Both the position numbers and the translations under genes were made by a program. Shown piece after piece: positions 3,321 through 62,073 of a stretch of 64,000 nt of DNA. Each line of letters opens with the position of its first letter. Within the stretch, counting starts at the first letter, position 1. A model generated the notes under the pieces. The model had not been told where the DNA came from, did not search any database, and saw only the letters and a list, made by a program, of their open reading frames with translations. Where the stretch lies: the NCBI GenBank assembly GCA_023144035.1, contig JAGLGM010000003.1:15876-79875 (forward strand), in the 5' to 3' direction. Source of the DNA: Candidatus Pacearchaeota archaeon. GTDB taxonomy: Archaea; Nanobdellota; Nanobdellia; Pacearchaeales; GW2011-AR1.

Positions 3321-3535
3321 TATAATATGTCTATATTATATATATTTATTATTTTATTTATATTTTATATATAATTAGAATCAAACATATAGAGAATCTA
3401 TATAATATAGGCAATGTGTTGGCGCAAAAAACAATCTAATAGGTGGTTAAAACGCAGAAATTCAACTAAAAACTAAAAATATATTTTAATATATTTATAT
3501 AAATAAAAAGGGAATAGAGTATTTAAATTTTTAAA

Positions 3536-3772
3536 ATGGAAGAAAAAAAGAAAATATCGACAACATTCGCGAGAATTGGAAGTATGGGTAAATCAAAAAT
3601 AATTACAATCCCAAAATCTATAAAAGATATGAATGCAGGGGACGAAGTTTTAATTATCAAAATGAATATGGAATTAATTGACTATCTTAAAAAATTAGTT
3701 GAAAAAGATTTTGTCAAACATAATATAAAACTTGAGTGGATTGATTATTTAAGGCGAAAAAGATTTAGTTAA
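3536..3772 (+). CDS. AbrB/SpoVT/MazE-type swapped-hairpin DNA-binding protein
   Basis: RIGSMGKSKIITIPKSIKDMNAGDEVLI motif. Confidence 0.5.
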   Translation: MEEKKKISTTFARIGSMGKSKIITIPKSIKDMNAGDEVLIIKMNMELIDYLKKLVEKDFVKHNIKLEWIDYLRRKRFS

Positions 3773-4329
3773 TACCCAACAGCTTCCACACCATATTCGG
3801 CTTGCTCTCTTGTAAACCCCCCATATTCTAATTGTTCAATTAATCCCTCTCGTGAAAATGGCATAATATCTAAATAAGATTGAGCCGTTAATGTAGCTTG
3901 TTCATTCCAATCAGCCCCACAATTATCTACTCCATATAATGCTTGTTCATGAGTGTATCCCTCATATTCTAATTGTTCAATTAATCCATTATAAGAGAAA
4001 GACATAACGTTCAGATAAGATAATGCACTGTCCAATGCATTCTTTTCACCTATTGTTGTTTCATCAGATTCTTTTACAGCTGGTGTTGTTGTTTGTGTTG
4101 GTGTTGTTGTTTGAGTATTTGAATTATCTGTTGATACAAGATTTTCTGAATTATAATTATCTGAAATTGTATTGGTCTCTTGGGTTTCCTCTTCAAAAGT
4201 CTTCACAACATTAGCAGTTTGAGAAAATGAATCAGATATAACATTGACTACACCCAAAAACATGAAACCTACAATTACCCAAAACCACCATTTTTGATAG
4301 AAGGTTTTATCCTTTTTTTGTTTTTCCAT
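3769..4329 (-). CDS. Ltp-family (prophage superinfection-exclusion lipoprotein-like) membrane protein with two Ltp repeats
   Basis: N-terminal TM helix, Thr/Pro-rich linker (TQTTTPTQTTTP), then two repeats: SALSYLNVMSFSYNGLIEQLEYEGYTHEQALYGVDNCGADWNEQA and AQSYLDIMPFSREGLIEQLEYGGFTREQAEYGVEA. Confidence 0.6.
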   Translation of the reverse strand: MEKQKKDKTFYQKWWFWVIVGFMFLGVVNVISDSFSQTANVVKTFEEETQETNTISDNYNSENLVSTDNSNTQTTTPTQTTTPAVKESDETTIGEKNALDSALSYLNVMSFSYNGLIEQLEYEGYTHEQALYGVDNCGADWNEQATLTAQSYLDIMPFSREGLIEQLEYGGFTREQAEYGVEAVGY

Positions 4330-4330
4330 T

Positions 4331-4882
4331 TTAATAATAATTTACCTCAATTTCATCTTCTCCATATCCTGTAATAATGCAATCAGATATTTTTTTATCA
4401 GATTCTTTAATATAAATTTCTATAATGGCTTTAGTTAATTCATAATCTTCTAATCCATTTTCATTTACTTCAACATCTTCTACTTTTTCCCCTTCTTCAT
4501 CTTTTACTGTAAATTCCATTTCATTCCATTCTTCAACTAAATTGTTAAAATCTTCTGACGCAGTATCATTAAAACCTAATGAAGCCACCCCACACATTAT
4601 CTCAGTCATTAATTCAGTCGCATCTCCAAAAAAATCATTATAAATTATTTCTTCTTCAAAATAAAGTCTCATATCCAGTGAAACTTCTTTTGTTAATGAA
4701 TTTTTAGTAAGGATCACTGTACTATTTTCATCCGAGTATTCTATAATTTCTATGTTAGATTTATTTGATTGTTTATTAAACAAGAAAAAAGATAAAACTA
4801 TAATCAAAATAATAACTGCAACTCCTCCTATGATTAAACTTTTATTTTTTATATTTAATTTAGATGTCATTAATTGCCCCAA
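4331..4882 (-). CDS. Membrane-anchored hypothetical protein (N-terminal TM, acidic C-terminal domain)
   Basis: ORF track; hydrophobic segment IIGGVAVIILIIVLSFFLF. Confidence 0.45.
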   Translation of the reverse strand: MGQLMTSKLNIKNKSLIIGGVAVIILIIVLSFFLFNKQSNKSNIEIIEYSDENSTVILTKNSLTKEVSLDMRLYFEEEIIYNDFFGDATELMTEIMCGVASLGFNDTASEDFNNLVEEWNEMEFTVKDEEGEKVEDVEVNENGLEDYELTKAIIEIYIKESDKKISDCIITGYGEDEIEVNYY

Positions 4883-5631
4883 TTCTTAATCAAACCTTTA
4901 GGAAGATTTTCAATAAAAGTAACAATTTTATCAACAATAGATTCGAGCCAAGAAGTTCTATTTTCTAATTCTACATTTTGTTCTTCTAATTCTTCAACTT
5001 TTTGTTCAAGTTCAGCAACTCTTAATTCTAATTCGTTTGGTTGTGGAGGTTCTTCAGATTCTTCTTGTTCTGTGCAAATTATAAAATTATCATAATCCAT
5101 ATGACCTATTCCATTATGACCAAAAACTGTACCAATATAAACTTCATGTTCAACATTATTATTTATTGTATGTGTAGTTACTTCATTAAATGTGATTTGT
5201 CCTTCTCCAAATTCTATTTTATTATGATATTTTTCAAAAGGACGACAAACTCCATCCCAACATCCTCCTAATCCAAATCGGTATTGATTATCCACTAAGA
5301 ACATATTCACTGAATTTCCTTCTGCATAAATAAAATTAATATCATATTCCAACATATCTCCTGCTTTGAATTTATATTTTGGGACTAAATATGTTCTATG
5401 GTCTCCGAGAATTGAATCCTGTCTTGTATGAAAATTTTCTAAATCAGCATCTAATCCAGAATCAGCTATAAATGGTTGTCCTTCATAATCTTTCCTAATT
5501 TCCCATTTACTTGTATCTAAAGTATCAGATGAAAAATCATCATAAACTTCACAAACTTGCACAGCACTAATTAAACTAATCAATAAAATTGGTAGAATTA
5601 AAGTTAATACAATTTTGCTCTGTTTTCTCAT
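4870..5631 (-). CDS. Secreted hypothetical protein with signal peptide and C-terminal coiled coil
   Basis: N-terminal signal KIVLTLILPILLISLISA; heptad-like ELELRVAELEQKVEELEEQNVELENR. Confidence 0.45.
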   Translation of the reverse strand: MRKQSKIVLTLILPILLISLISAVQVCEVYDDFSSDTLDTSKWEIRKDYEGQPFIADSGLDADLENFHTRQDSILGDHRTYLVPKYKFKAGDMLEYDINFIYAEGNSVNMFLVDNQYRFGLGGCWDGVCRPFEKYHNKIEFGEGQITFNEVTTHTINNNVEHEVYIGTVFGHNGIGHMDYDNFIICTEQEESEEPPQPNELELRVAELEQKVEELEEQNVELENRTSWLESIVDKIVTFIENLPKGLIKNWGN

Positions 5632-5703
5632 GTATTTATATTTTATTTAGATTATTTAAATCTTTTTATCTGTTACGCTTCTGTCACTCTTTCTTTTTAA
5701 GAA

Positions 5704-5943
5704 TTGTTACGCTATTGTTTCATGAAAAAAGAGTTAAAATTGGAGATATTCTTAAAGAAAAGTGAATTAAGAAGAAATGTTTGGAAACAATTAGATAAAT
5801 CAAAAACTGCTTCTGAAATTTCTAACGAAGTAGATAAGCATAGAAGTGCTGTAAGCAGAGTTCTTTTAGACATGCAAAAAGCAGGATTTGTGAAATGTAT
5901 TAATCCAGAAGATAAGAGTTTCAGGTGTTATGTGAAGAGATAG
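5704..5943 (+). CDS. Winged-helix transcription regulator (ArsR/MarR-like); start may be the internal MKKELK
   Basis: TASEISNEVDKHRSAVSRVLLDMQKAGFV HTH. Confidence 0.5.
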   Translation: MLRYCFMKKELKLEIFLKKSELRRNVWKQLDKSKTASEISNEVDKHRSAVSRVLLDMQKAGFVKCINPEDKSFRCYVKR

Positions 5944-6135
5944 AAAAATTACAAATAATAGAGCTTTTATTTTGTTATAATTTTCCCTCTATAAAAACAC
6001 CAAAAAACAGGCAAATACTTGATATAACGAGAGAAAAAGAGGTTACCTATACTATTTATCAACTAAGAGAAGTTGTTATGTTTTTAGAGTTGTTATATAA
6101 TTATAAAAATTGTACTTTAATAGTTATTTTAGAAA

Positions 6136-6495
6136 ATGGCAAATGAAACTAAGGCAATTAAAAATATAAAAGTAACAAAAAGGGAATGGAATAATGTTGG
6201 AAACCTTATTGATTTCTTAAAATTTAGATATAAAAAGGAAGATGATTTTGTTAAATGGTTAATAGGAATCGCTTTAGTATTTTTATTTTCTTCTAGTGTG
6301 ACAAATGTTCTAGAGAGTCAAACAGATTGGATTAGAACCACTGGAGTTGTTATTTTTATTGCTTCTATAGTATTTATTGTTCTATTACTTATTATTCAAC
6401 ATTATATTGATAAAGCTCAAATAGAAGTTATGAAATATCTCTACAAACAAAAAGATAAAAAGAAAAAGGTAAAAGGAAAAACTAAGAAGAAATAG
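6136..6495 (+). CDS. Small membrane protein with Lys-rich tail
   Basis: Two hydrophobic helices, KKKKVKGKTKKK tail. Confidence 0.4.
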   Translation: MANETKAIKNIKVTKREWNNVGNLIDFLKFRYKKEDDFVKWLIGIALVFLFSSSVTNVLESQTDWIRTTGVVIFIASIVFIVLLLIIQHYIDKAQIEVMKYLYKQKDKKKKVKGKTKKK

Positions 6496-6709
6496 AAAAT
6501 TAATGACCTATTGGGCCCCTGAATATTTCTTTAAACATTAATATCAAAAAAGTTAATAATATTGCCGAAAAAATTATCTCAAACCATTTTCTCTTTATAA
6601 ATTTTAAAAACTTATTCATAAAGATTCTACGAATTTATTATATTTAAATATGGGCGTTTCTAAAAAGAAAAGTATAAAATTGTTGGATTCTTAATTATCT
6701 TGATTAAAA

Positions 6710-7726
6710 ATGCCTAGTTTTGAAGAAATATTTGGATTAGCAACATATTTGAAAGAAATAGAAAATTTAAAAATTAATTTAAGAGTTAATTTTAATGGAG
6801 TATTATTAACTGCTTTGTATTTTAAAAATAAGTCTGAAGAAAAAGAAAGAAAAGATAAATTTTTTAATAGAAATAAAGAGATAATTGAAGAAATAAATAA
6901 AGAGATAAATAAATTTAATTTAAAATTAAAGGAAAAATACAAGTTTTTGCCTCTAAAGTCTCTTGAAATAATTAATCTTGAATATATTAAAAAAATAATT
7001 TATGAACATCAAGGAAAAGATTCAACTTCAAGAAAATACACTCTTCTCCAACTAAATAATTGTTTATTAGATTTTGAAAATTCGATTAAGAATTTTCTTG
7101 ACTCCTTTGAAATCCAATTGATACCATTTAAAGGGAGAGACGTTACAGATTTTCTTAATGAAGAAAATGGAATAATGGTAAAAGAAGCTTTTGATATTTA
7201 TAGTATTGGATATTTCGGAACTGCTGTTTTCTTAATGGGAAAATGTCTTGAAAAAAACATCACAGATTTTCTTAAAAAGAATGTTAATAAAAATAAAATA
7301 AAATATCCTTTAAATGAAATTGAGAAATGTACTTTCCATCAAAAAATAAACATCTTAAAAAATGAAACTTTTATTTCTGAATCAGATTATTCTAAGATTA
7401 TGTCTATCAAATGGGAGAGAAATATTGCAGTTCATCCTTCTAAAAAAGAAGAAATAGAAAAATTGATGGCAGATTCTAGTGGGACAATAACTCTCTGTAT
7501 TAATCAGATTATTAATTTCCAAAAGAAAATAGAAGAAGTGAAAAGTGAGGCTGAAATCCAAGAAGAAAAAGCAAGAGAATTGCTTGGGGGAACGTCGGGA
7601 GGAGGAATTCCAATATTATATGGAAAAACTCCAGAAGAAAATTTAGAATTGCTTAAAAGCTATGGTGGGAAAAGAATAGAAGAAATGAGGGAAAAATTAA
7701 GAAAAGAAATTGAAGAAACAAAATAA
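6710..7726 (+). CDS. Hypothetical protein with HEPN-like Rx4H motif (possible RNase / abortive-infection-type)
   Basis: KWERNIAVHP (R-x4-H) in the C-terminal half; coiled-coil-rich; adjacent to integrase. Confidence 0.4.
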   Translation: MPSFEEIFGLATYLKEIENLKINLRVNFNGVLLTALYFKNKSEEKERKDKFFNRNKEIIEEINKEINKFNLKLKEKYKFLPLKSLEIINLEYIKKIIYEHQGKDSTSRKYTLLQLNNCLLDFENSIKNFLDSFEIQLIPFKGRDVTDFLNEENGIMVKEAFDIYSIGYFGTAVFLMGKCLEKNITDFLKKNVNKNKIKYPLNEIEKCTFHQKINILKNETFISESDYSKIMSIKWERNIAVHPSKKEEIEKLMADSSGTITLCINQIINFQKKIEEVKSEAEIQEEKARELLGGTSGGGIPILYGKTPEENLELLKSYGGKRIEEMREKLRKEIEETK

Positions 7727-7739
7727 AAAATAAATTTGT

Positions 7740-8900
7740 TTATACCCCTAACTGACTTTCAATACTCTCTAAGATTTCACCTTCTTCTGTGATTTCAAAG
7801 ACTTCTGGATTTTCCTTCATTCTTCTATGTAATTTTTCATTAAACTTTATAATATCTCTTATTTTTTCTTCAAACCTTTTCTCCATATCTTCCATCTTGA
7901 TTTCTAACTCATGCTTTTTTTCTTCCGAGATTTCTTCAACATGATACACTTGTGATAAAACTGCATCACGCATATCATCATTATCTATATGAGTGTATCT
8001 TGCACCAATATTTGAATTTGGTGAATGTCCTGAAAACTTTTTTGCTAATGGGTTCGAAATTGTCTTATACATTTGAGTTAACTTTGTATGTCTAAATAGA
8101 TAAGGAAATATCGGTTTAGTTATTCCTGCTTTCTTTCCAAGTTCTTTAAAATACATAGACATGCCTGAACTACTAACTGGCTTACTTCTATTTCTTGGAG
8201 TCGGAAAGATAAAATCATTGTCTGAAACATTGGGAAAAGGAAACTCTTGTTTATATCTCTTCAAATGAATTATAGATTCATTCAAAGGAATTGTTCTTCC
8301 TCTACTTGTTTTAGAACTAAATAAAGACATTTCTTTACTTTCAAGATTTATAGAACTCCATTTTGCTGTTCTAACTTCTTCTGTTCTTGCCCCAGTTTCA
8401 GAAAGTAGACTAATTAATGCCTTATATCTTAGTTTTTCGGCTGTTCTAATTAATAATTCAAGCTCTTCAGCAGTAACTAAACTATTTTTGTTTATTTTTC
8501 TGTCTATCTCTTCTCTCTTTTTCTTAATATCTATTAGTTCTTTAAATCTTGATGACCAATCGTCATAATGAAACTTCAAAAACCTCTTTAGAACCTTCTT
8601 AATATCGTTTTGAGTAGGCACAGATATTGAAGAATTGTTAAGAATTACTAAAAATTCTCTCAAATCTTTTAATTCCAGATTGTAAAGAGATTTTTCCATA
8701 ACATCATAAATTTGATACATTTTCCTTTCAATCATATCAAGAGCGTGTGAACAAGCTGACATGCCACAATAATCTACAAAAGATTCTATAGTTTCTTTAT
8801 CTTTATCAGACATAGATTTACCAATTGTCTCTTTCAGAGTTATAATCTTACCATTAACTCTTCTCTTTTTTAAGTTATAATTTGGAAATTCTTTTTTCAT
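7740..8900 (-). CDS. Tyrosine recombinase / phage-type integrase
   Basis: LLSETGARTEEV (Arg box I), FRHT (box II), GHSPNSNIGARYTHI (catalytic Tyr region). Confidence 0.8.
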   Translation of the reverse strand: MKKEFPNYNLKKRRVNGKIITLKETIGKSMSDKDKETIESFVDYCGMSACSHALDMIERKMYQIYDVMEKSLYNLELKDLREFLVILNNSSISVPTQNDIKKVLKRFLKFHYDDWSSRFKELIDIKKKREEIDRKINKNSLVTAEELELLIRTAEKLRYKALISLLSETGARTEEVRTAKWSSINLESKEMSLFSSKTSRGRTIPLNESIIHLKRYKQEFPFPNVSDNDFIFPTPRNRSKPVSSSGMSMYFKELGKKAGITKPIFPYLFRHTKLTQMYKTISNPLAKKFSGHSPNSNIGARYTHIDNDDMRDAVLSQVYHVEEISEEKKHELEIKMEDMEKRFEEKIRDIIKFNEKLHRRMKENPEVFEITEEGEILESIESQLGV

Positions 8901-13637: not shown

Positions 13638-13726
13638 GGATGCGTAAGTTAATGTTAGACTATGTGGCTCCAGAATTTTTAACATGGAGTTACCACAAAG
13701 CGAGGGTTAGATTCCCTCCGTGTCCA
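13638..13726 (+). tRNA. tRNA-Trp (anticodon CCA at 13670-13672) with 18-nt intron (13674-13691) after position 37
   Basis: Acceptor ggatgcg/cgtgtcc (two G-U), discriminator A, D-stem agtt/gact, anticodon stem tgtgg/ccaca, loop ctCCAg, T-arm gaggg-ttagatt-ccctc. Intron atggag pairs with anticodon-loop ctcca (BHB-like). Confidence 0.6.
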
Positions 13727-16236: not shown

Positions 16237-16430
16237 AAATCACAAATAAAACAAAAATAAACAAATTGCTTGAAAAAAATCCTGAAGCAGCTGAAATTTT
16301 ATTTGAAGCTGGTATGGGTTGTGTGGGTTGTTCTATGGCTATGCATGAAACAATTGAACAAGGTTGTTTAGCACATGGAATGACAAAAAAACAAATTGAA
16401 AAATTAATTAAGGAGTTAAATAAGAAATGA
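16233..16430 (+). CDS. DUF1858-type redox disulfide small protein
   Basis: GMGCVGCSMAMHETIEQGCLAHG. Confidence 0.5.
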   Translation: MKITNKTKINKLLEKNPEAAEILFEAGMGCVGCSMAMHETIEQGCLAHGMTKKQIEKLIKELNKK

Positions 16431-18004
16431 TGAAATATTCTAAAAAAGTTATGTGTGAATTTCTCAAACCTAAAAACATGGGAGAAATAAAAAATCCAGA
16501 TGGAGTTGGAAAAATTGGAAATCCTACTTGTTTACTTCCAGATGAAAAAATTTGGTTAAATGAAAGTTTTGAAGCAATTAAAAAAACAAATAAAGGAGAT
16601 ATGGTTTTATCACATGATTCTACTGAAAATAAGATTTTAGGAAAATTTTCTAGAGAATATAAAGGAGAAATAATCAGACTAAAAAATGCGCTTGGGAATA
16701 TTTTTCTTACTCCAGAACATCTTGTTTTTGCAATGCGTATTCCAAAAGGAGATAAATTTAAAAGAAATAAAGGTAAAAAACAATTGATTCCTTCATGGTA
16801 TCATGCTGAATATTTGAAAAAAGGGGACATAATATTATATCCTTTTTCAAGAAAAGAAAAAAATATTAAATATTTGACAATAGATATCCCAAAACCCAAA
16901 TATGATTTTAGGAGCAAAAATATTCCAAGTAAAATCTCTCTTAACATGGATCTTTTGAGGCTTTTTGGTTACTTTCTCTCGGAAGGAAATATTCAAGATA
17001 AACCATCTAAAACATATATTTCTTTTGCGTTGCATATTAAGGAGAAAGAAATTGTCGAAGACATAAGAAAGATTGTTAAAAGATTATTTGATTTAGAAAT
17101 AAAATCCAAAGAAAGAATAAAGGAAAATGGGGTCGTTGTTTATATTTACCATGCTCAATTAGCAAGATGGTTTAAAAAATTATTTGGAAATGGTACTCAA
17201 AATAAATATTTACCTGAATTTATAATGCAATTACCCATATCAAAACAAAAAGCATTGATAAAAGGTTTGTGGAAAGGAGATGGATGCATCAATGTGAATC
17301 GTATTGGACCAAGAGCAGGCTATGTTACAATTTCATATAGATTATCTCAACAAATAAAAATCCTTTTACTAAGGCAAAAAATAATCTCTTCATTTTATAT
17401 TGAAAAAGAAAAAAAATCCAAATGGGCTAATCATAAAGAAGCTTATAGAATTCATGTGGGACAAAGAGATTCTCTAAAAAAATTATGTAAAATTTTAAAT
17501 TTAAAACATTGCTCAAAATCTTATGAGTCTATTAGTTCTTGGATTAACAATAATTTTTTATATACCCCTATAACTAAAATAGAAAGAAAAAATTATAAAG
17601 GAAAAGTATATAATTTAGAAGTTGAAAAGACCCATTCATTTATTTCAGAAAGTTTTTGTCTTCATAATTGTGGCGATGTTATGTGGGTTTATATTAAAGT
17701 TAAAAATGATAAAATTACAAAAATCAAATTTAAAACATTTGGATGTGCTGCTGCAATTGCAACATCTTCTATGGTTACTCAACTTGCTAAAGGAAAAACA
17801 ACTAAAGATGCTAAAAAAATTAAAATAAAAGATGTGGCATCTTCTTTAAAAGGATTACCTCCTCTAAAAATGCATTGTAGTGAACTTGCAACAGATGCTT
17901 TAAAATTAGCAATTAAAGATTATGAAAAAAAGAAAACTAATAAAAAGAAAAATGAAAATAGAACAAAAAGTAAAACAAACTTTGAAAAAGATAAAGTTAA
18001 ATAA
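16427..18004 (+). CDS. iscU: Fe-S cluster scaffold IscU/NifU-N, interrupted by an intein; Lys-rich C-terminal tail overlaps the next gene
   Basis: N-extein YSKKVMCEFLKPKNMGEIKNPDGVGKIGNPT; C-extein CGDVMWVYIKVKNDKITKIKFKTFGCAAAIATSSM…LPPLKMHCSELATDALKLAIKDY. Confidence 0.8.
   Translation: MMKYSKKVMCEFLKPKNMGEIKNPDGVGKIGNPTCLLPDEKIWLNESFEAIKKTNKGDMVLSHDSTENKILGKFSREYKGEIIRLKNALGNIFLTPEHLVFAMRIPKGDKFKRNKGKKQLIPSWYHAEYLKKGDIILYPFSRKEKNIKYLTIDIPKPKYDFRSKNIPSKISLNMDLLRLFGYFLSEGNIQDKPSKTYISFALHIKEKEIVEDIRKIVKRLFDLEIKSKERIKENGVVVYIYHAQLARWFKKLFGNGTQNKYLPEFIMQLPISKQKALIKGLWKGDGCINVNRIGPRAGYVTISYRLSQQIKILLLRQKIISSFYIEKEKKSKWANHKEAYRIHVGQRDSLKKLCKILNLKHCSKSYESISSWINNNFLYTPITKIERKNYKGKVYNLEVEKTHSFISESFCLHNCGDVMWVYIKVKNDKITKIKFKTFGCAAAIATSSMVTQLAKGKTTKDAKKIKIKDVASSLKGLPPLKMHCSELATDALKLAIKDYEKKKTNKKKNENRTKSKTNFEKDKVK
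16529..17668 (+). other. Intein (380 aa) with LAGLIDADG homing-endonuclease domain, inserted in IscU between GNPT and CGD
   Basis: Starts CLLPDEKIWLN (block A), LTPEHLVFA (block B TxxH), LFGYFLSEGNI and LIKGLWKGDGC (LAGLIDADG blocks). Ends …VYNLEVEKTHSFISESFCLHN followed by extein Cys. Confidence 0.75.
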
Positions 18005-29171: not shown

Positions 29172-29264
29172 GGCTCCGTAGCTCAGCCTGGCAGAGCACT
29201 GGACTTTTAGTTGGTAAAACAAGAAGTTATCCAGGTGTCGAGGGTTCAAATCCCCCCGGGGCCA
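29172..29264 (+). tRNA. tRNA-Lys (anticodon TTT at 29206-29208) with 19-nt intron (about 29210/11 to 29228/29)
   Basis: Acceptor ggctccg/cggggcc, discriminator A, D-arm gctc-agcctggca-gagc, anticodon stem ctgga/tccag, loop cTTTTag, T-arm gaggg-ttcaaat-ccccc (one A-C mismatch). Intron aagaagt pairs with actttt. Confidence 0.7.
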
Positions 29265-29735: not shown

Positions 29736-32700
29736 ATGGTAAAAGACAGTCAACATTTAATTGTTAAAAAATACTTGAAAGGTCATTCTCTAGTTGAATC
29801 TAATATAAAATCATTTAATAATTTTATAGAAAAAAGAATACAAGAGATTGTTAATGAAATCTCTGAAGGAATAGAAAGTGATGATTTTGAAATTAATTTA
29901 GGAAAGATAAAAGTTGGTAGTCCAAAAGTTATTGAAGCTGATGGAAGTTCTTCATTAATTATGCCTTCTGAAGCAAGATTAAGAAATTTAACTTATTCTG
30001 CTCCTATTACATTAGAAATTACAGTTAGAAAAGATGATCAAGTTGATTCTGAAACTGTTGAAATTGGAAGAATACCTATAATGGTAAAGAGTAAAGTTTG
30101 TAATACTGCTGGAATGAGTCAAGAAGAATTAATTGCAAATTATAATGATGGTATGGACCCTGGAGGATATTTTATAATTAAAGGTAATGAAAGAGTTATG
30201 GTTATGGCAGAAGATCTTGCAGAAAACCAACCATTTGTAGAAACAAATAAAAAAGATATATTAATTTTAAAAATGTTTTCTTCAAAAGGAACATACAGAA
30301 TCCCTGTTAATTTAATTGAAAATAAAGAAGGTATTTTTGAATTATCATTTAGTAGATTTAGAGATTTGCCAGCAATTGTAATCTTAAAAGCTTTAGGTTT
30401 AACAAAAGAATCAGATATTGCAAAATATATTGGAAAGGAAACAGACAGTGTTATTGTTAACTTATATGAATTTGTTAATTTAGCAACTAGGGAAGATGCA
30501 ATTATGTATATTGCTGAAAAAACAAATCTTCAAGGTACAAAAAAAGAAATTTTAGATAGAGCAAAACAAAGAATTGATTCTTATCTTTTTCCACATATTG
30601 GAAATAAAAAAGAAGATAGGATGAAAAAAGCAGTAACTCTTTGTAAATTAATTAAACAGTTTTTAATTGCTAAAGAAAATCCTCAATTAAGAACAGATAA
30701 AGATCATTATGCTAATAAAAGAGTTAGACTTTCAGGTGATTTATTATCAACATTATTTAGAGTAAATTTAGGTATTTTAATTAGAGATATTCAATATTCG
30801 TTGCAAAAATCAGCAAAAAGAAAAAAATTCTTTTCAATTAAGGTTCTTGCTAAATCTACTTTATTTTCACATAGAGTTGAATCTGCAATTGCTACAGGAA
30901 GTTGGACTGGTGAAAGAAGTGGAATTACACAAAATATGGATAAGACAAATTATCTTGCGACAATTTCTCAACTACAAAGAGTTTCAAGTATGCTTCCAAG
31001 TGATCAAGAAAATTTTATGGCAAGAACATTACATCCAACTCATTATGGAAGATTCTGTCCAATAGAAACTCCAGAAGGAACAGAAATTGGATTAAGAAAA
31101 AATCTTGCATTATTAAGTCAAGTATCAACAAGAACTGATTTAAATGAAGATAAATTTTTAAAAGAATTAGAATCTTTAGGATTAAATAAAGAAGGTGTTA
31201 AAGGACGTGAAGTTTTCTTTAATGGAAGATTTGTTGGAAGTATTGAAAACCACAATGACTTTGTTCAAGAAATTAGGGAAAAAAGAAGAAATAATGAACT
31301 GCCTCTTCAAATGAGTATAAGAGATGATGAAAGTTTTCAAACTATTTCAATTTCAACAGAACCTGGAAGGGTTTTAAGACCATTAATAATTTTAGAAAAT
31401 GGAGCTCCAAGATTAAAAAATGAACATTTAATTCAATTAGAACAAAATGAAATACAATGGGAAGATTTAATTAAAAAAGGTATTATTGAATATCTTGATG
31501 CTGCCGAGGAAGAAAATACTTTAGTTGCATTATATGAAGAAGAATTAACTCCTAAACATACACATCTTGAAATAGACAATATTGCTTTATTTGGTGTTGT
31601 TACTGGATTAGTTCCATATGGAAATCATGATCAAAGTTCAAGATTAAATAGAGGAAGTAAAACACAAAAACAAGCTTTAGGTTTATATTCTGCTAATTAT
31701 TTGTGTAGAACTGATACAGATGTAAGTATTTTACAATATCCTCAAAAACCGATTGTAAGAAGTTTCATATATGATACATTAAATACTTATCCTGCTGGAC
31801 AAAATCTTACTGTTGCTATAATGACTTATGAAGGTTATAACATGGAAGATGCTTTAGTATTTAATAAAGGAAGTGTTGATAGAGGTGTTGGAAGAAGTTT
31901 TTATTATAGGCCTTATTCTGCAGTTGAAATGAATTATGCTGGTGGATTAAAAGATGAAATTGCAATTCCTGAAAAAGATGCTTCTGGTTATAAAATGGAA
32001 TCAAGTTATAGATTTTTAGAAAATGATGGTGTTATTTTCCCTGAAGCAGAAATAAAAGAAGGAGAAGTTTTAATTGGAAAAATGTCTCCTCCAAAATTCC
32101 TATCAGAAGCGAGAGAAATTTCAGTTAGAACAAAAAAAGAATCAAGTGTAACAATGAGACAAGAAGAAAAAGGAATTGTTGATGCTGTTTTTGTTACAGA
32201 AGATTCTGAAGGAAATAAAATTGTTCAAGTTAAAACAAGAGATCAAAGAGTTCCTGAATTAGGTGATAAATTTGCAACTTCTCACGGTCAAAAAGGTGTT
32301 ATAGGTATGATTATTCCTGAAAATGATATTCCTTTTACATCAAATGGTATTAAACCAGATGTTATGTTTAATCCTCATGGTCTTCCAAGCCGTATGACTG
32401 TCGGTTATTTATTAGAATTATTAGCGGGTAAAGTTGGTTGTCTAAAAGGTGAAGTTATAGACGGTACTTCTTTCTCAGGTACAAGTAAAAAAGAATTAGG
32501 AAAACAATTAGAACAATTAGGATTTAGATTTGATGGAAAAGAAACAATGTATAATGGTATTACTGGAAAAAAAATGGAAGCAAAAATATTTGTTGGAAAT
32601 TTATATTATCTTAAACTTAAATATATGGTTGGAAATAAAATTCACGGTAGAGCTTCTGGAAAAGTTGCATTATTAACTAGACAACCTATTGAAGGTAGAT

Positions 32701-32993
32701 CAAGAGGAGGAGCTTTAAGATTAGGTGAAATGGAACAGCAAGCTTTAGTTGCTCATGGTGCTTCTTTATTATTAAAAGAAAGATATGATTCTGATAAAGT
32801 TGTATTACCAATTTGTACAAAGTGTGGTTCAATCGGTATTGATGACAATATACGAAATAAAATTATTTGTCCTATGTGTGGAAGTGAAGAAATTGAGCCT
32901 GTTGAAGTTTCTTATGCTTTCAAATTATTATTAGAAGAATTACAAGGTTTACATATTCATAGTAAATTTGACTTAAAAAATAAATACGAATAG
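29736..32993 (+). CDS. rpoB: RNA polymerase subunit B (unsplit B''+B')
   Basis: Full-length beta-like subunit with C-terminal zinc motif CTKCGS…CPMCGS. Confidence 0.95.
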   Translation: MVKDSQHLIVKKYLKGHSLVESNIKSFNNFIEKRIQEIVNEISEGIESDDFEINLGKIKVGSPKVIEADGSSSLIMPSEARLRNLTYSAPITLEITVRKDDQVDSETVEIGRIPIMVKSKVCNTAGMSQEELIANYNDGMDPGGYFIIKGNERVMVMAEDLAENQPFVETNKKDILILKMFSSKGTYRIPVNLIENKEGIFELSFSRFRDLPAIVILKALGLTKESDIAKYIGKETDSVIVNLYEFVNLATREDAIMYIAEKTNLQGTKKEILDRAKQRIDSYLFPHIGNKKEDRMKKAVTLCKLIKQFLIAKENPQLRTDKDHYANKRVRLSGDLLSTLFRVNLGILIRDIQYSLQKSAKRKKFFSIKVLAKSTLFSHRVESAIATGSWTGERSGITQNMDKTNYLATISQLQRVSSMLPSDQENFMARTLHPTHYGRFCPIETPEGTEIGLRKNLALLSQVSTRTDLNEDKFLKELESLGLNKEGVKGREVFFNGRFVGSIENHNDFVQEIREKRRNNELPLQMSIRDDESFQTISISTEPGRVLRPLIILENGAPRLKNEHLIQLEQNEIQWEDLIKKGIIEYLDAAEEENTLVALYEEELTPKHTHLEIDNIALFGVVTGLVPYGNHDQSSRLNRGSKTQKQALGLYSANYLCRTDTDVSILQYPQKPIVRSFIYDTLNTYPAGQNLTVAIMTYEGYNMEDALVFNKGSVDRGVGRSFYYRPYSAVEMNYAGGLKDEIAIPEKDASGYKMESSYRFLENDGVIFPEAEIKEGEVLIGKMSPPKFLSEAREISVRTKKESSVTMRQEEKGIVDAVFVTEDSEGNKIVQVKTRDQRVPELGDKFATSHGQKGVIGMIIPENDIPFTSNGIKPDVMFNPHGLPSRMTVGYLLELLAGKVGCLKGEVIDGTSFSGTSKKELGKQLEQLGFRFDGKETMYNGITGKKMEAKIFVGNLYYLKLKYMVGNKIHGRASGKVALLTRQPIEGRSRGGALRLGEMEQQALVAHGASLLLKERYDSDKVVLPICTKCGSIGIDDNIRNKIICPMCGSEEIEPVEVSYAFKLLLEELQGLHIHSKFDLKNKYE

Positions 32994-32996
32994 CGA

Positions 32997-33037
32997 AGGA
33001 CACCTCGCGGTTTCCTACCGCACTACCTTCCCTTAAA
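32997..33037 (+). other. 41-nt conserved element in the rpoB-rpoA spacer; second copy inside the tRNA-Ser intron
   Basis: aggacacctcgcggtttcctaccgcactaccttcccttaa vs 61964-62004 aggacacctcaacggtttcctaccgcactaccttcccttaa (2 mismatches); relatively GC-rich. Confidence 0.5.
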
Positions 33038-33062
33038 AATAAAAAACCAAAAAACAAATAAA

Positions 33063-36000
33063 ATGGCAAAAGCAGTTAGAAAAAAAATAGGAGAAATTAA
33101 ATTTTCTTTAATTAGTCCTGACCAAATCAAAAAAATATCTTCTGCTAAAATTGTAACTCCTGAACTTTATGATATTGACGGTTATCCTGTTGATGGTGGT
33201 TTAATGGATTTAAGATTAGGTGCTATTGATCCTGGTGTAAGATGTAGAACTTGTGGGGGAAGATTAAAAGAATGTTTAGGACACCCAGGAAGTATTGATT
33301 TAGCTAGACCAGTTATTCACTTAAAATATATTCCTTTAATTGAAATGTGTTTAAGATGTTTTTGTCATGATTGTGGTAAATTAATGTTAGAAGATAAAAA
33401 TTTAGAAAAATTAGCTCCAAGTCAAAGAGCTAAAAAAGCAAAAGATTCTAAAAAATGTCCTCATTGTCAAGCAACTCAAACTAAAACTAAGTTAGATAAA
33501 CCTACAAATTTCTTTAAAGGAAAAACAAGAATATTTCCAACAGAAGTTAGAGAACTTTTAGTGAATATTTCTAATGACGAATTAAAAAAAATTGGAGTTG
33601 ATCCAGATAATTGTAGGCCTGAATGGGCTGTTTTAACTGCATTATTAGTTCCACCTGTAACAGTAAGACCAAGTATTATTTTAGAATCAGGTGAAAGAAG
33701 TGAAGATGATTTAACACATAAACTTTCAGATATTATTAGGGCTAATCAAAGACTATGGGAAAATTTAAATGCAGGTGCTCCTGAAGTTATTATTGAGGAT
33801 TTATGGGATTTGTTACAATTTCATATAACAACTTTCTTTGATAATACAACAACAAGAATTCCTCCTGCAAGACATAGAAGCGGTCAACCTTTAAAGACAA
33901 TTACAGAAAGAATAAAAGGTAAAGAAGGAAGAATTAGAAAAAATATTGCAGGTAAAAGAGTGAATTATTCTGGTAGAACTGTTATTTCTCCTGACCCTTA
34001 TATTAATATAAATGAAGTAGGAATTCCACATGAAATTGCAAGAATTGTTACTGTTTCTGAAATAGTTAATGATCTTAATCTTGAGAAATTAAAGGATTTA
34101 GTAAGGCAAGGAGAAACATATCCTGGTGCAAATTATGTTATACGTCCTGATGGAAAAAGAAAAAAAATAACAGAAGAATTAAGAGAAGAAATTATTAGTG
34201 AACTTTCTCCAGGTTATCAAGTTGAAAGGCATTTACAAAATGGAGATATTGTATTATTTAATAGACATCCAAGTCTTCACAGGGGAAGTCTTATGGCTCA
34301 CTATGTAAAAGTATTGCCTGGAAGAACATTTAGATTACATCCTGCTGCTGCTACTCCTTATAATGCTGATTTTGATGGTGATGAAATGAACATACACTCT
34401 CCACAAACAGAAGAAGCAAGAGCAGAAGCAAAAATACTTTTAGATGTTAAAAGAAATCTTATGTCTCCTAAAAATAATACAAATTTAGTTGGGTGTATTG
34501 GAGATGCTATTACTGGAAATTATTTATTAGGTTTTAATGAACTTTCTAAAGAAGATACAAATCAACTTTTATACAAATCAGGATTAGATTATTCTGTTTC
34601 AAAAAAAATGGTTTCTGGACTTGAAATCTTCTCGAAAATATTACCTAAAGTTAATTTTTCAAATGATTCTATAACAATTAAAGATGGAGAAATTACTAAA
34701 GGAGTTATAGATAAAACTACTTTTGGTGATGAAGATGGAGACTTAGTTAAAGAACTTGATAAAACTGTAGGTAGAACTGAAACTTTTGAAACTATTAAAC
34801 GAGCTTTTAATTTAGGTAAAAATTATCTTACTGATCATGGAATTACAACTTCTGTTGAAGATTTAGATTTAGATGAAAAAGTAATTGAAGCTGGTGAAGA
34901 AATAATTAAAAAAGCTGAGAAAAAAACAAATGAATTAATTTTATCTTATAATGAAGGAACTTTAGAAAGTATTCCTGGAAAAACAAAGGAAGAATCAAGA
35001 GAAATAAAAATCTTACAATCTTTAAATGAAGTAAGAACAAAAATTGGAGAAATTGTTAAACGAGAATTCCCTGCTTCAAATCCAGTTAACCATATGATTA
35101 AATCTGGAGGAGGAGGAAATATTCTTAATATTACTCAAATGGCTTCATGTGTTGGTCAACAAGCTTTAGGAAATCGTAGAGTTGATTTTGGTTATACAGG
35201 AAGAACACTTTCATTTTTCCAAAAAGGAGATTTATCTCCAAAATCAAGAGGTTTTATTAGAAATTCTTTTATTAAAGGTTTAAGGCCAGATGAATTCTTT
35301 TTCCAAGCAATTACAGGAAGAGATTCGCTTATGGATACTGGTTTGAGAACACCTAAATCAGGTTATTTATATAGAAGATTAGCAAATGCTTTACAAGATT
35401 TGAGAAAAGAATATGATGGAACAATTAGAGATAGTAATAATAATATTATTCAATTTAAATATGGAGATGATGGATTAGATGTTACCAAACTCCATATTAA
35501 AGGAGAATTAGATTCTGGAGAAGCAATAGGAATTGTTACTGCACAATCATTTGGAGAAGCTTCAACACAAATGGTTTTAAGAACATTCCATATGGCAGGT
35601 GTAGCAGAGATGCAAGTTACCCAAGGTTTACCAAGAATTATAGAAATTTTTGATGCAAGAAAAAAACCTTCTTCACCTAAAATGGAAGTTTATCTAAATA
35701 AAGAATTTAACAATGAAAAAAATGCAAAAATCTTTGCTGAAAAAATTAAAGAAGTTAAATTACAAGAAATTTCTTCTGAAATTATATTGGATTTTGGAAA
35801 TAAAAAAATTGAAATAAAAATTGATGATAAAGGATTAAAACAAACTCATGCTTCTATAAATAAAATTGTTGAAAGATTAAATGAAGCTGGATTTAAAGTT
35901 AAAGAAAAATCAAATTCAATAATTTTAAACGTTGCTGAATTTGAATTTAGAGAAATATATAAACTTAAAGAAAAATTAAAAGAAACTATAATTTCAGGCA

Positions 36001-36551
36001 TTAAAGATATTAAACAAGTTTTAATTGTAAAAAAAGATAGAGATTTTGTTGTAACTACTTTAGGAACAAATCTAAAAGAAATGATAAATATGAAAGAAGT
36101 TAATAAAGATAAATTAATTTCAAATGATTTTTATGAAATGGCTGATGTGTTTGGAATTGAATCTGCTCGTCAATTAATAATTAATGAAATTTCAGAAGTT
36201 CTTAAAAGTCAAGGATTAGATATTGATATAAGACATCTTAAATTAGTTGCAGATGCTATGACTAATTCTGGTGGAGTTAAAGGAGTTACAAGAATGGGTA
36301 TTATTGCTCTAAAATCTTCAATATTAGCAAGAGCTACTTTCGAAACTCCTGTTAAGCAATTTGTGAATGCTACTCTAAAAGGAAGCGGAGATAAATTAGC
36401 AAGTGTTATTGAAAATATTTTACTTAATCAACCAGTGCCAATTGGAACTGGTCTACCTGGACTTCTTGTTAAAGTTGTTGGACCTTTAATAAAAAAAGAG
36501 GAAGATAAGAAAAAAGCTAAAACAAAGGTTGTTGAAGAGGTCAACAAATAA
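33063..36551 (+). CDS. rpoA: RNA polymerase subunit A, apparently unsplit (A' and A'' regions in one 1162-aa ORF)
   Basis: Zinc motifs at N-terminus, NADFDGDEMN catalytic loop, then trigger-loop/A''-type region (AQSFGEASTQMVLRTFHMAGVA) in the same frame. Confidence 0.9.
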   Translation: MAKAVRKKIGEIKFSLISPDQIKKISSAKIVTPELYDIDGYPVDGGLMDLRLGAIDPGVRCRTCGGRLKECLGHPGSIDLARPVIHLKYIPLIEMCLRCFCHDCGKLMLEDKNLEKLAPSQRAKKAKDSKKCPHCQATQTKTKLDKPTNFFKGKTRIFPTEVRELLVNISNDELKKIGVDPDNCRPEWAVLTALLVPPVTVRPSIILESGERSEDDLTHKLSDIIRANQRLWENLNAGAPEVIIEDLWDLLQFHITTFFDNTTTRIPPARHRSGQPLKTITERIKGKEGRIRKNIAGKRVNYSGRTVISPDPYININEVGIPHEIARIVTVSEIVNDLNLEKLKDLVRQGETYPGANYVIRPDGKRKKITEELREEIISELSPGYQVERHLQNGDIVLFNRHPSLHRGSLMAHYVKVLPGRTFRLHPAAATPYNADFDGDEMNIHSPQTEEARAEAKILLDVKRNLMSPKNNTNLVGCIGDAITGNYLLGFNELSKEDTNQLLYKSGLDYSVSKKMVSGLEIFSKILPKVNFSNDSITIKDGEITKGVIDKTTFGDEDGDLVKELDKTVGRTETFETIKRAFNLGKNYLTDHGITTSVEDLDLDEKVIEAGEEIIKKAEKKTNELILSYNEGTLESIPGKTKEESREIKILQSLNEVRTKIGEIVKREFPASNPVNHMIKSGGGGNILNITQMASCVGQQALGNRRVDFGYTGRTLSFFQKGDLSPKSRGFIRNSFIKGLRPDEFFFQAITGRDSLMDTGLRTPKSGYLYRRLANALQDLRKEYDGTIRDSNNNIIQFKYGDDGLDVTKLHIKGELDSGEAIGIVTAQSFGEASTQMVLRTFHMAGVAEMQVTQGLPRIIEIFDARKKPSSPKMEVYLNKEFNNEKNAKIFAEKIKEVKLQEISSEIILDFGNKKIEIKIDDKGLKQTHASINKIVERLNEAGFKVKEKSNSIILNVAEFEFREIYKLKEKLKETIISGIKDIKQVLIVKKDRDFVVTTLGTNLKEMINMKEVNKDKLISNDFYEMADVFGIESARQLIINEISEVLKSQGLDIDIRHLKLVADAMTNSGGVKGVTRMGIIALKSSILARATFETPVKQFVNATLKGSGDKLASVIENILLNQPVPIGTGLPGLLVKVVGPLIKKEEDKKKAKTKVVEEVNK

Positions 36552-48100: not shown

Positions 48101-49126
48101 TTAATTAGAATATCTCCCAATCACAGTCAAATTATAACACAAAGATTTTAATAACATTTCATTATCCTTTGCTGTGTCGGTTTTTGTTCGCAACCAATTA
48201 GTAAGTTTCTTTTTCATAACTGAAAAAACAGATTCAACTAAAACCCTATAACGATACGATTCATGCCAAATTTCCTCTTCATTTTTATACAGATGGAAAG
48301 CATCACTCCATGCTTTACTCTTTGGATGTTTACCTGTTATATTTGATTTGAAATCAATAAAAACTTCCTTTATTCCAAGTTCCTGACATAAAGAATAATT
48401 ATCTTTGCTTAAATAACCTGCATCAGCGAGACATTTTTCGATAAGAAAACCATTTTTACAAACATTAGAAACAATCTCATTAAACATAGGACAATCATGT
48501 TGAGTTCCATGAGTTGGAATAGCATAAGCAATTATTTTGCTGTTTGTTAAACAACCAATATGTAACTTTTTAGTTTTGGTTAATGAGGGGGCAGAAGGAT
48601 TAGATTTTGGTTTATTTGAATAACCCCCAACATACATTTTAAGTCCGAACCAAGTTGAGTCTATAGCCAAAGTATTTTCCTGATTAAGAAAAGGCATAGC
48701 AGAAATTTGTATTAATTTGCTTAACTTTTTTGTTAAGGTCTTGTCATTCATATATTTACTTAAAGTGCTTCGTTTGGGTATTGATGAAATTACACCTAAA
48801 CTTTTTGCTAAAAGTAAGTCTGATTGAACTCTACGATAAGAAAGACCATTCAAAGATAGGATTAATAATGATTTGAAAATATCATTTAAATTGAATCTTG
48901 GTCTTCCTTCATATTGAGGCATGTTCAAAACAGCATTATCAATAAATTCAGAGCAAATTTTTAGAAATCTTGCTCTTTCAGTTTCAAGGTAATTTTCTTG
49001 TTTTTTAAGCACAGGAAGTGTAGTAGTCATTGTCATTTTATATATATTTAGACTGAATATTATTAAATAATAATGATATAAAGGTATATAAATGTATCTA
49101 TTTTTGATAATATATAGTCTGAACAT
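48101..49126 (-). CDS. DDE transposase (IS4/IS5-like, DDE_Tnp_1 type); true start probably internal (MTMTTTLPVL…)
   Basis: LAIDSTWF (D), CLADAGYLSKDN (D), YRYRVLVESVFSVMKKKL (E, Y-R-E-K). Confidence 0.65.
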   Translation of the reverse strand: MFRLYIIKNRYIYIPLYHYYLIIFSLNIYKMTMTTTLPVLKKQENYLETERARFLKICSEFIDNAVLNMPQYEGRPRFNLNDIFKSLLILSLNGLSYRRVQSDLLLAKSLGVISSIPKRSTLSKYMNDKTLTKKLSKLIQISAMPFLNQENTLAIDSTWFGLKMYVGGYSNKPKSNPSAPSLTKTKKLHIGCLTNSKIIAYAIPTHGTQHDCPMFNEIVSNVCKNGFLIEKCLADAGYLSKDNYSLCQELGIKEVFIDFKSNITGKHPKSKAWSDAFHLYKNEEEIWHESYRYRVLVESVFSVMKKKLTNWLRTKTDTAKDNEMLLKSLCYNLTVIGRYSN

Positions 49127-61641: not shown

Positions 61642-61772
61642 AGCGAGGTGGAGCAGTCTGGAGTGCTCGTCGGGCCCATAAGTAAATCCTTGCAGGATTT
61701 TTCATTCCTGCATAATCTTAGGATTATACGAGGAAACCCGGAGGTCGCGTGGTTCAAATCCCGCCCTCGCTA
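61642..61772 (+). tRNA. Initiator-type tRNA-Met (anticodon CAT at 61677-61679) with about 55-nt intron (61682-61736)
   Basis: A1:T72 acceptor agcgagg/cctcgct, discriminator A, D-arm gagc-agtctggagt-gctc, anticodon stem tcggg/cccgg (three G-C), loop ccCATaa, T-arm gcg[t]gg-ttcaaat-cccgc (single-nt bulge). Confidence 0.55.
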
Positions 61773-61921: not shown

Positions 61922-62073
61922 GCCCAGATCGCATAGTGGTTATTGCACCGGATTGCTAAGCACAGGACACCTCAACGGTTTCCTACCGCACTACCTTCCC
62001 TTAATGGATTGTAGAAGTTAACGCAAAGATCCGGACCCTTCGGGGTGCGTAGGTTCGACTCCTACTCTGGGCG
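61922..62073 (+). tRNA. tRNA-Ser (anticodon GCT at 61955-61957) with about 70-nt intron (61960-62029) and long variable arm
   Basis: Acceptor gcccaga/tctgggc, discriminator G, D-loop with GG, anticodon stem ccgga/tccgg, loop ttGCTaa, variable arm acccttcggggtgc, T-arm gtagg-ttcgact-cctac. Intron 3' end gcaa pairs with ttgc (BHB-like). Confidence 0.65.
61964..62004 (+). other. Second copy of the 41-nt element, inside the tRNA-Ser intron
   Basis: See 32997-33037. Confidence 0.5.

Follow-up and report, generated by a model that had tools for sequence, protein, structure and literature searches.

Does the interrupted sequence at positions 61922 to 62073 of a 64,000-nucleotide (nt) stretch of Candidatus Pacearchaeota archaeon DNA (contig JAGLGM010000003.1 of assembly GCA_023144035.1; the whole stretch is called the window here) encode a functional serine tRNA, and what is the conserved element that fills most of its intron? 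An earlier reading of the bare sequence, hereafter the original prediction, had called the locus a tRNA-Ser(GCT) gene with a 70-nt intron and had noticed that the intron shares a 41-nt element with a site behind rpoB. Our analysis suggests that the locus is probably a functional, spliced tRNA-Ser(GCU) gene and that its intron core belongs to a family of mobile elements under sequence constraint, which also has a part in the splice motif. The parts of the gene and of its intron are the following, with positions counted from the first letter of the window.

61922-62073, plus strand: intron-bearing class II tRNA-Ser(GCU) gene (Rfam tRNA, ARAGORN, consensus fold of orthologs)
61922-61958, plus strand: exon 1 (Rfam tRNA match, ARAGORN with option -i, consensus fold of four orthologs)
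61959-62028, plus strand: intron of 70 nt at position 37/38, with the ends AGCACAGG...ACGCAAAG (ARAGORN)
61959-62004, plus strand: element copy 1, within the intron (covariance model R1, 61.7 bits)
62023-62026, plus strand: GCAA, the 3' strand of the central helix of the bulge-helix-bulge (BHB) splice motif, pairing with U32-C35 (61953-61956)
62029-62073, plus strand: exon 2 (Rfam tRNA, ARAGORN, consensus fold of orthologs)

The Rfam tRNA model (RF00005) matched exactly 61922-62073 on the plus strand with 47 bits, where the gathering threshold is 29 (E=6.7e-07, counted over the entire window). ARAGORN with its intron search reported a tRNA-Ser(gct) with a 70-nt intron (AGCAC...CGCAAAG) and, when 61959-62028 had been removed in silico, recognized the spliced gene as an intronless tRNA-Ser(gct), so that the proposed identity and intron were borne out in both forms of the gene. 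Exon 1 contains the 5' strand of the acceptor stem, a 3-bp D stem, the 5' strand of the anticodon stem (CCGGA) and loop bases 32 to 37 (UUGCUA), with the anticodon GCT at 61955-61957. Exon 2 contains A38, the 3' strand of the anticodon stem (TCCGG), the variable arm (ACCC-TTCG-GGGT), the T arm, the 3' strand of the acceptor stem and the discriminator G73 (G62073), a base that is typical of tRNA-Ser. The combination of a long variable arm and a serine anticodon is that of a class II tRNA-Ser. The minimum free energy fold of the precursor is a cloverleaf whose anticodon stem is lengthened by UUGC/GCAA (z = -3.3; 0 of 200 shuffles were as stable). A consensus fold of four Ser(GCU) orthologs likewise gives a cloverleaf, in which compensatory changes occur in the stem of the acceptor, in the T arm and in the long variable arm (in the 4-bp stem of the last, GC to AU, CG to UA twice and CG to GC), and the clean pairing that had been read in the acceptor, anticodon, variable and T arms is thereby upheld. 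Because these compensatory changes support a cloverleaf with a long variable arm, the Rfam model's own alignment, which sets the anticodon stem against a piece of the variable arm with an 81-nt insert, was rejected.

Archaeal pre-tRNA introns at position 37/38 are marked by a BHB motif, cleaved by EndA and followed by RtcB ligation (reviewed in PMC4090602 and PMC4033280). The original prediction had placed the serine intron at 38/39 or, as a second choice, at 37/38; the second choice stands and the first does not, the products of the two being indistinguishable owing to a repeated A. The intron GCAA had also been proposed to pair with TTGC of the anticodon loop in a BHB-like helix, and this pairing recurs in the minimum free energy fold, in the orthologs and in related introns. 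The central helix, UUGC/GCAA, has 4 bp and is bounded by two 3-nt bulges on opposite strands, which is the arrangement of a BHB. The 5' bulge consists of U36, A37 and intron base 1 (A), and the 3' bulge, which carries the 3' splice site and abuts the anticodon stem, consists of A62027, G62028 and A38 (62029). On the intron side, pairing contiguous with the central helix is limited to a single G-C pair out of three positions, and the strict hBHBh' form, with contiguous outer helices of at least 2 bp on both sides, is absent. The serine splice motif is a relaxed BHB with a three-way junction, relaxed because the helix that would close it on the intron side is the base of a hairpin, set off from the central helix by an arm of about 33 nt.

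This hairpin belongs to the element, which consists of a hairpin and a pyrimidine tail of about 41 to 46 nt in all and covers most of an intron with a G+C content of 47%, against 27.4% for the window. In copy 1, the lower stem pairs GC (61960-61961) with GC (61988-61989), the upper stem pairs AGGACACC (61964-61971) with GGTTTCCT (61977-61984) around the loop TCAAC, and the tail is ACTACCTTCCC (61990-62000) plus TTAA. The window contains a second copy:

32992-33036, plus strand: element copy 2, after rpoB (R1, 65.1 bits)

The two copies are identical over 29 nt (61976-62004 and 33008-33036; blastn E=3e-11) and can be aligned over about 45 nt, the only differences being in the loop, where TCAAC of the intron stands against TCGC, and in the 5' flank, where GCAC stands against GCGA, a result that confirms the sharing originally noticed between intron and post-rpoB site. 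No further match to the element was found in the window.

Outside the window, the exact element 24-mer GGTTTCCTACCGCACTACCTTCCC occurred at 8 places in 7 species-representative metagenome-assembled genomes (MAGs), all labelled Pacearchaeota, Woesearchaeota or Nanoarchaeota, and was absent from the viral contigs searched. A second pattern, in which the hairpin was fixed and the tail left free, returned 60 metagenome loci, nearly all of which keep TA(C/T)CTTCC after the hairpin though the tail was not forced. The covariance model R1 was built from 46 distinct copies and used to scan 0.5 Mb of sequence, with copies above 56 bits regarded as canonical; the loci scanned outside the window carry L numbers (for example, L057). 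R1 found 73 canonical copies in contigs of Pace-, Woese- and Nanoarchaeota, together with at least 7 diverged copies. The consensus reads (A)GCG-A-AGGA(C/A)ACC, a loop, GGUUUCCU-AC-CGC and then the tail ACUACCUUCC; the loop has 2 to 5 nt, or 38 nt in one copy. The hairpin columns were 90.7% paired, versus at most 51% when the partner columns were slid, and three pairs showed compensatory double changes. By inspection, the diverged copies have exchanged the lower stem GCG/CGC for AUA/UAU, UAA/UUA or GUAA/UUAC and have retained the ...CUUCC tail 5 to 8 nt past the hairpin; since MAFFT misaligned their 3' halves, a model-based alignment was used instead.

The element family is apparently undescribed. 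No Rfam 15 family matched it, the gathering-level matches in the window being three tRNAs only; around the serine locus, a scan at E<=1 gave the tRNA and a chance small RNA match, and literature searches returned no description of the element. A known ribozyme or other known RNA family was rejected on the empty Rfam result at E<=1, and a viral or plasmid origin on the lack of matches in viral contigs. A subset of loci (L015, L027, L032/L043, L049, L052, L061, L064 and L068) has a second module directly 3' of the tail, CC(C)UUGRG-UUUGR-CUCARGG-YUGAUGR, whose hairpin also shows compensatory changes, and in L027 and L052 a truncated second element stands in tandem.

The preferred home of the element is the tRNA intron. 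About 44 of the 72 instances found by pattern sit in anticodon-loop introns at 37/38, always in the orientation of the tRNA itself, and at least 17 tRNA species serve as hosts, including Arg-UCG/UCU, Val-UAC/GAC, Gly-GCC/CCC, Ile-GAU, Thr-GGU, Ser-GCU/GGA, Asp-GUC, Lys-CUU/UUU, Phe-GAA, Leu-UAA, Cys-GCA and Glu-UUC. Of the remaining tRNAs on these contigs, 30 are intronless and 11 have introns that lack the canonical element, some of which carry diverged hairpin-plus-CUCC or CCUUC versions. In 40 distinct element-bearing introns whose splice sites were re-derived, the helix between bases 32 to 35 and intron bases n-5 to n-2 was complete (4 of 4 pairs) in 37 and had 3 of 4 pairs in the remaining 3. 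This helix takes at least 13 different sequences, each matched to its anticodon loop, and the covariation lends strong support to the predicted central helix and 37/38 junction. The contiguous helix on the intron side was at most one-third paired in 23 of the 40 introns. The GCG of the hairpin begins at intron base 2 in 26 of the 40 and at base 1 in another 7, and from this fixed register we infer that the lower stem of the hairpin supplies the helix that closes the 5' splice bulge.

Introns of different tRNAs resemble one another beyond the element. The Ser-GCU and Gly-GCC introns both end in ACGCAAAG, those of Arg-UCG and Val-UAC have GUGUAAAUCGCU(G/A)AAAA in common, and introns of tRNAs with the same bases at 32 to 35 are also alike in their 3' parts. 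These likenesses in the 3' parts indicate that whole introns have been transferred between tRNA genes. A separate conserved intron family of DPANN archaea was seen in tRNA-Glu(CUC), where introns of 82 to 126 nt (L016 6122-6320, L061 1581-1750 and L071 6-160) share the unrelated sequence ...GGUGAUCU...AUCUCRAUGAGAGA...GCAUCUCAAUGCRACC....

Copy 2 provides a view of the element at a site where it can be compared with empty relatives. Its first base falls within the TAG that ends rpoB (32991-32993), and 27 nt separate it from the start of rpoA at 33063. The element is present at the same point in the window, in L057 (94% RpoB identity) and in L047 (68%), where it enters after the TA of the rpoB stop and turns TAA into TAG. 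In five relatives (L074 and L076-L079; RpoB C termini 68 to 84% identical) rpoB and rpoA adjoin directly as GAATAAAATG, without the element (...AAATACGAA TAA A ATG...), and a sixth relative has a 35-nt spacer that also lacks it. Because the junction is empty in these close relatives, the rpoB copy is, as judged by sequence comparison, an insertion relative to the related genomes. A BHB around this copy, as in an mRNA intron, was rejected, there being no downstream complement to the upstream bases. In the window (32991-33065), a single frame without a further stop runs from the TAG of rpoB through the 69-nt spacer to the ATG of rpoA, so that readthrough would fuse RpoB to RpoA. We do not read this as programmed readthrough because the in-frame spacer is not kept in L057 or L047, and cis-regulation of rpoB and rpoA was likewise set aside, with close relatives lacking the element.

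Small open reading frames (ORFs) lie between the element and rpoA in L057 (3677-3868, 63 amino acids [aa]) and L047 (4227-4529, 100 aa, Cys-rich); they are unrelated to each other, neither has a Pfam match and neither occurs in the window. For this reason, the rpoB-rpoA junction looks like a possible insertion hotspot. The genes themselves also vary: rpoB is a single ORF of 1085 aa in the window (29736-32993) and is divided into two ORFs (402 to 483 aa plus 560 to 667 aa) in L074, L077 and L078, whose C termini are 68 to 83% identical, and RpoA (33063-36551 in the window) is unsplit in all of these (about 1150 to 1185 aa), which is unusual for archaea.

Copies outside introns were found in four kinds of setting.

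Behind stop codons: that of rpoB in the window, in L057 and in L047; further cases in L059 and L070
In the 16S-23S spacer: L027, L052 and L038
About 1.6 kb upstream of the 16S gene: L038, L054, L056 and L072
In tRNA 5' leaders: L012/L055, L029/L048/L058/L069, L049 (12556-12596), L069 (6517-6556) and L031

The leader units are built from a 13- to 21-nt copy of the 5' end of the tRNA, the element, a spacer and the intact tRNA, and the 3' part of the spacer pairs with the duplicated 5' piece, G.U pairs included. They stand upstream of Ser-GGA, Ser-CGA, Arg-UCU and Lys-UUU (the last twice). Leader and intergenic copies are bounded by direct repeats of 16 to 22 nt (0 of 300 shuffles were as good). 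Every canonical copy outside tRNAs whose orientation can be judged is sense to the flanking genes. The rule is limited to canonical copies because some diverged ones break it: in L067 (1541-1575) and L070 (37-73) they lie on the strand opposite the tRNA and abut its 5' end, and in L015 (102-137) one directly follows the tRNA 3' end. The genes beside non-tRNA copies showed no common function, and a function shared by such neighbors was dropped as an explanation.

Presence and absence also differ at a second orthologous site. In the window, the intron of the tRNA-Lys(UUU) gene is 19 nt long and lacks the element, whereas the ortholog of this gene in L044, with near-identical exons, has a 68-nt intron that carries the element; in L069, the Lys(UUU) gene is intronless, but an element-bearing leader unit is present. 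Multiple copies with presence/absence differences at the rpoB-rpoA and Lys-UUU sites are the mark of a mobile repeat, and we infer that the element spreads between tRNA genes and into other transcribed spacers. Other hallmarks of repetitive extragenic palindromes (REPs) or miniature inverted-repeat transposable elements (MITEs), namely, a target-site duplication of constant length, copies in both orientations and a linked transposase, were not found: the flanking repeats vary between 8 and 22 nt and at some sites are missing or fall short of significance, the canonical copies all lie in sense orientation, and no transposase is adjacent.

These observations can be combined into the following account. 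In the precursor, U32-C35 and GCAA would form the central helix, the anticodon stem would shut the 3' bulge (A, G and A38), and the G+C-rich hairpin, beginning at intron base 2, would with its base shut the 5' bulge (U36, A37 and intron base 1) on the intron side. As in other archaea, cleavage in both bulges by the splicing endonuclease would be followed by exon joining through a ligase of the RtcB type, and the excised intron would probably be circularized. The predicted exon junction of the spliced tRNA joins ...GGAUUGCUA to AUCCGG... (loop UUGCUA, then AUCCGG), and that of the circularized intron joins ...ACGCAAAG to AGCACAGG.... Archaeal tRNA introns are known to become circular at the BHB (PMC12558985). 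The relaxed form of the serine motif is consistent with the published alpha4-type endonucleases with an extra loop in DPANN archaea, which accompany heavily disrupted tRNA genes (PMC5829648). The family would move between tRNA genes, and the element would be copied in sense orientation into transcribed noncoding DNA, namely, the leaders of tRNAs, the spacers of rRNA genes and sites directly behind stop codons, the rpoB copy being one such secondary insertion. Because the stem sequence is invariant and the tail is both single-stranded and invariant, we propose that they may be recognized by a putative protein or RNA partner. We put forward more tentatively that the hairpin-plus-CUUCC element is either a new functional RNA specific to DPANN archaea, acting as a protein-binding or guide RNA and made in quantity in the form of circular introns from many tRNA genes, or a mobile intron RNA that supplies its own splice helix; in the latter form it might spread to other transcripts by RNA cleavage and ligation or by template switching.

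Several points weigh against this account. The lower stem of the serine copy has just 2 bp (GC/GC, followed by an A.C mismatch), the motif is not a strict BHB and the hairpin base is a presumed flanking helix, and the 64-kb window encodes neither a splicing endonuclease nor a ligase. Much of the hairpin sequence was prescribed by the scan patterns, which leaves little evidence of covariation in it. With respect to mobility, no mobilizing enzyme was identified and no viral contig matched. The flanking repeat at the rpoB site is suggestive only (15 nt with one mismatch in L057, where 13 of 300 shuffles were as good) and is not significant against shuffles in the window or in L047. Occupation of the same site in lineages that are 68% identical could mean old residence followed by precise losses rather than mobility. 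Finally, the invariance of the tail is left unexplained by the splicing and mobility steps as proposed.

The tail is the point of departure for a different emphasis, in which the element is chiefly a trans-acting small RNA or protein-binding module and its part in splicing is secondary; it would be released from many tRNA genes as a circular intron, by RNase P from leaders, and from rRNA spacers and 3' untranslated regions, comparable to the C/D-box RNA of the archaeal tRNA-Trp intron, with the tail ACUACCUUCC as a seed or protein site. This emphasis overlaps the account given above, and we regard it as possible but doubtful. The stem and the unpaired tail are near-invariant over order-level lineages, the tail without having been forced by the search, and the closing stems of the leader units are preserved through G.U pairs, which matter only in RNA. 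All copies of judgeable orientation are sense, and they reside in RNAs that processing excises. The tail also lacks a consistent partner in cis: its pairing with downstream sequence was no better than in shuffles over 62 copies, and a P2 helix between tail and downstream sequence, plausible in single folds, was rejected on that result. However, no target emerged. The complement of the element has what we take to be a likeness to helix 45 of 16S rRNA, but as an antisense guide the tail failed, duplex energies against 16S and 23S rRNA (L038) and RNase P RNA (L063) of the carrier lineages being no better than those of shuffled queries. The C box (RUGAUGA; UGAUGA) and D box (CUGA) of C/D-box small RNAs, which can form a kink-turn and have a guide of 10 to 12 nt upstream of the D box, are absent from the window intron, and the kink-turn GA pairs are missing on inspection of the window copy; some relatives have UGAUGR-like strings in their 3' parts, with no D box as a partner. 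Identity as a C/D-box, kink-turn or H/ACA RNA was rejected for lack of the boxes and because the presumed GA strand lies opposite UCCU, with which it forms Watson-Crick pairs. The flanking genes have nothing in common, and the polymorphic rpoB and Lys sites would be unexpected for an essential RNA, though other copies could provide dosage.

If instead the element were purely selfish DNA of the REP or MITE kind, tRNA introns would be safe harbors to whose splicing it adds nothing, and its conservation would reflect only the needs of the mobilizing machinery. Insertion polymorphism, flanking direct repeats, the many unrelated noncoding settings and the palindromic hairpin core all fit such an origin, which we nevertheless consider unlikely: the intron register is fixed, with GCG at base 1 or 2 in 33 of 40 introns, the very place at which the 5' bulge needs a closing helix, and canonical copies are sense only. 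Moreover, flanking repeats of 8 to 22 nt are unlike the target duplications of transposases, no transposase is linked, copy number appears low (1 or 2 exact 24-mers per MAG) and there are no viral matches. That the serine locus is an insertion-disrupted pseudogene, or encodes separately processed halves of a split tRNA, is very improbable. The element does insert elsewhere, and L036 (1100-1260, minus strand) has a Ser(GCU) 3' half with an element "intron" and the loop UUGCUAA, with no 5' half within 400 nt. Against this, the exons in the window are intact and contiguous, all stems pair, the exon stems show compensatory changes in four orthologs with the same intron position, the 3' end of the intron is fitted to the anticodon loop as in 39 other hosts, and no intronless Ser(GCU) was seen in the window or the scanned loci. 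The L036 half itself could be a split or a truncated tRNA gene. Taken together, a spliced tRNA gene whose intron carries a mobile element ranks first, followed by the trans-acting RNA, the selfish DNA and, last, the pseudogene or split gene.

Comparison with known systems places the preferred reading, a spliced tRNA with a mobile intron core, among them: the serine tRNA and its intron are of a well-known kind, and the element appears to be a variant on shared or transposed archaeal tRNA introns. The serine intron resembles canonical 37/38 BHB introns in position, in its 4-bp central helix and two 3-nt bulges, and in the cloverleaf that is left after its removal. It differs in that the helix at the 5' bulge is not contiguous and is instead the base of a conserved hairpin, giving a three-way junction, in its length of 70 nt, which is long for an anticodon-loop intron without an ORF, and in a sequence that is kept across hosts. 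In Thermoproteales, near-identical introns in different tRNA genes were reportedly described by Fujishima et al. in 2010 as implying intron spread, and these are said to lie mostly at noncanonical positions and within single crenarchaeal genomes. The near-identity across different tRNA genes is common to both; in contrast, the DPANN core, where it occurs in tRNA introns, is confined to the canonical position, is kept across Pace-, Woese- and Nanoarchaeota, and is found also in mRNA spacers, rRNA spacers and tRNA leaders.

In Haloferax and other Euryarchaeota, the tRNA-Trp intron houses a C/D-box guide RNA. Such a tRNA-Trp intron with a C/D-box RNA is also mentioned in PMC12558985. It shares with the serine intron a conserved structured RNA module within a canonical intron, freed by splicing and probably circular; unlike it, the serine intron has neither C/D boxes nor a kink-turn, and the element is housed not by a single tRNA species but by at least 17, and occurs outside tRNAs as well, with no target found. 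The leader units recall the tRNA-Thr gene of Caldiarchaeum, where a 5' fragment upstream of the tRNA gene was left by integration of a mobile element (PMC3293823), in that L012, L029, L049 and L069 have a duplicated 5' piece and a foreign insert upstream. The Caldiarchaeum insert, however, is 1.8 kb long and encodes a recombinase, whereas the leader units have 75 to 90 nt and no ORF, and their 3' part pairs with the duplicate. As for REPs and MITEs, the element is similarly short, G+C rich, hairpin forming, multicopy, variable among relatives and found in transcribed intergenic DNA just after stop codons; it differs in its sense-only canonical copies, low copy number, repeats of variable length, lack of a linked REP-associated tyrosine transposase (RAYT) or other transposase, asymmetric conserved tail and preference for tRNA introns at a fixed register.

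The other tRNA genes of the window are the following.

13638-13726, plus strand: tRNA-Trp(CCA), 18-nt canonical BHB intron without the element (Rfam, ARAGORN)
29172-29264, plus strand: tRNA-Lys(UUU), 19-nt canonical intron without the element (Rfam, ARAGORN)
61642-61772, plus strand: initiator tRNA-Met(CAU), 55-nt intron (tRNA features; ARAGORN once spliced)

With introns of 18, 19, 55 and 70 nt in the Trp, Lys, initiator Met and Ser genes, the original statement that all four tRNAs of the window are interrupted proved correct, and the window yielded no intronless tRNA. The initiator Met gene has an A1:U72 pair, C33, an anticodon stem of GGG/CCC and a T stem with a bulge of 1 nt; it forms a relaxed BHB with a 2-bp central helix and a 4-nt 5' bulge, and it was detected neither by Rfam, even at E<=1, nor by ARAGORN in unspliced form. 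Its ortholog in L055 carries a diverged element copy (4372-4411). The window also encodes the archaeal proteins RpoB, unsplit RpoA, Rpo7, S24e, S7, EF-2 and EF-1alpha, the closest source-labelled RpoB homologs come from Pacearchaeota, Woesearchaeota or Nanoarchaeota, and a CstA gene identical to that of the window was found on the 142-kb metagenome scaffold ZHAN22-2. Other mobile features were observed: a NifU-like protein gene (16427-18004, plus strand) is split by an intein with a LAGLIDADG homing-endonuclease domain, the region 1734-8900 resembles an integrated element (AAA_25 ATPase, Ltp-like lipoprotein, DUF4145 protein and a tyrosine integrase at 7740-8900), and a DDE transposase lies at 48101-49126.

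Standard tRNA finders overlook or misassign many element-bearing or relaxed-intron tRNA genes, which adds to the tRNAs that have been reported as "missing" from DPANN MAGs. Outside the splice motif, archaeal tRNA introns are commonly held to be free to vary, the tRNA-Trp C/D case aside. In contrast, the module described here, of about 42 nt, is near-invariant over order-level DPANN lineages and at least 17 tRNA species and keeps a fixed register by the 5' splice site. If it is indeed a functional or mobile RNA, its invariant tail would be the recognition site of a putative partner. The element thus bears on the gain and movement of tRNA introns, on recognition by the DPANN endonuclease of relaxed specificity, and on the function that excised introns may have in reduced genomes.

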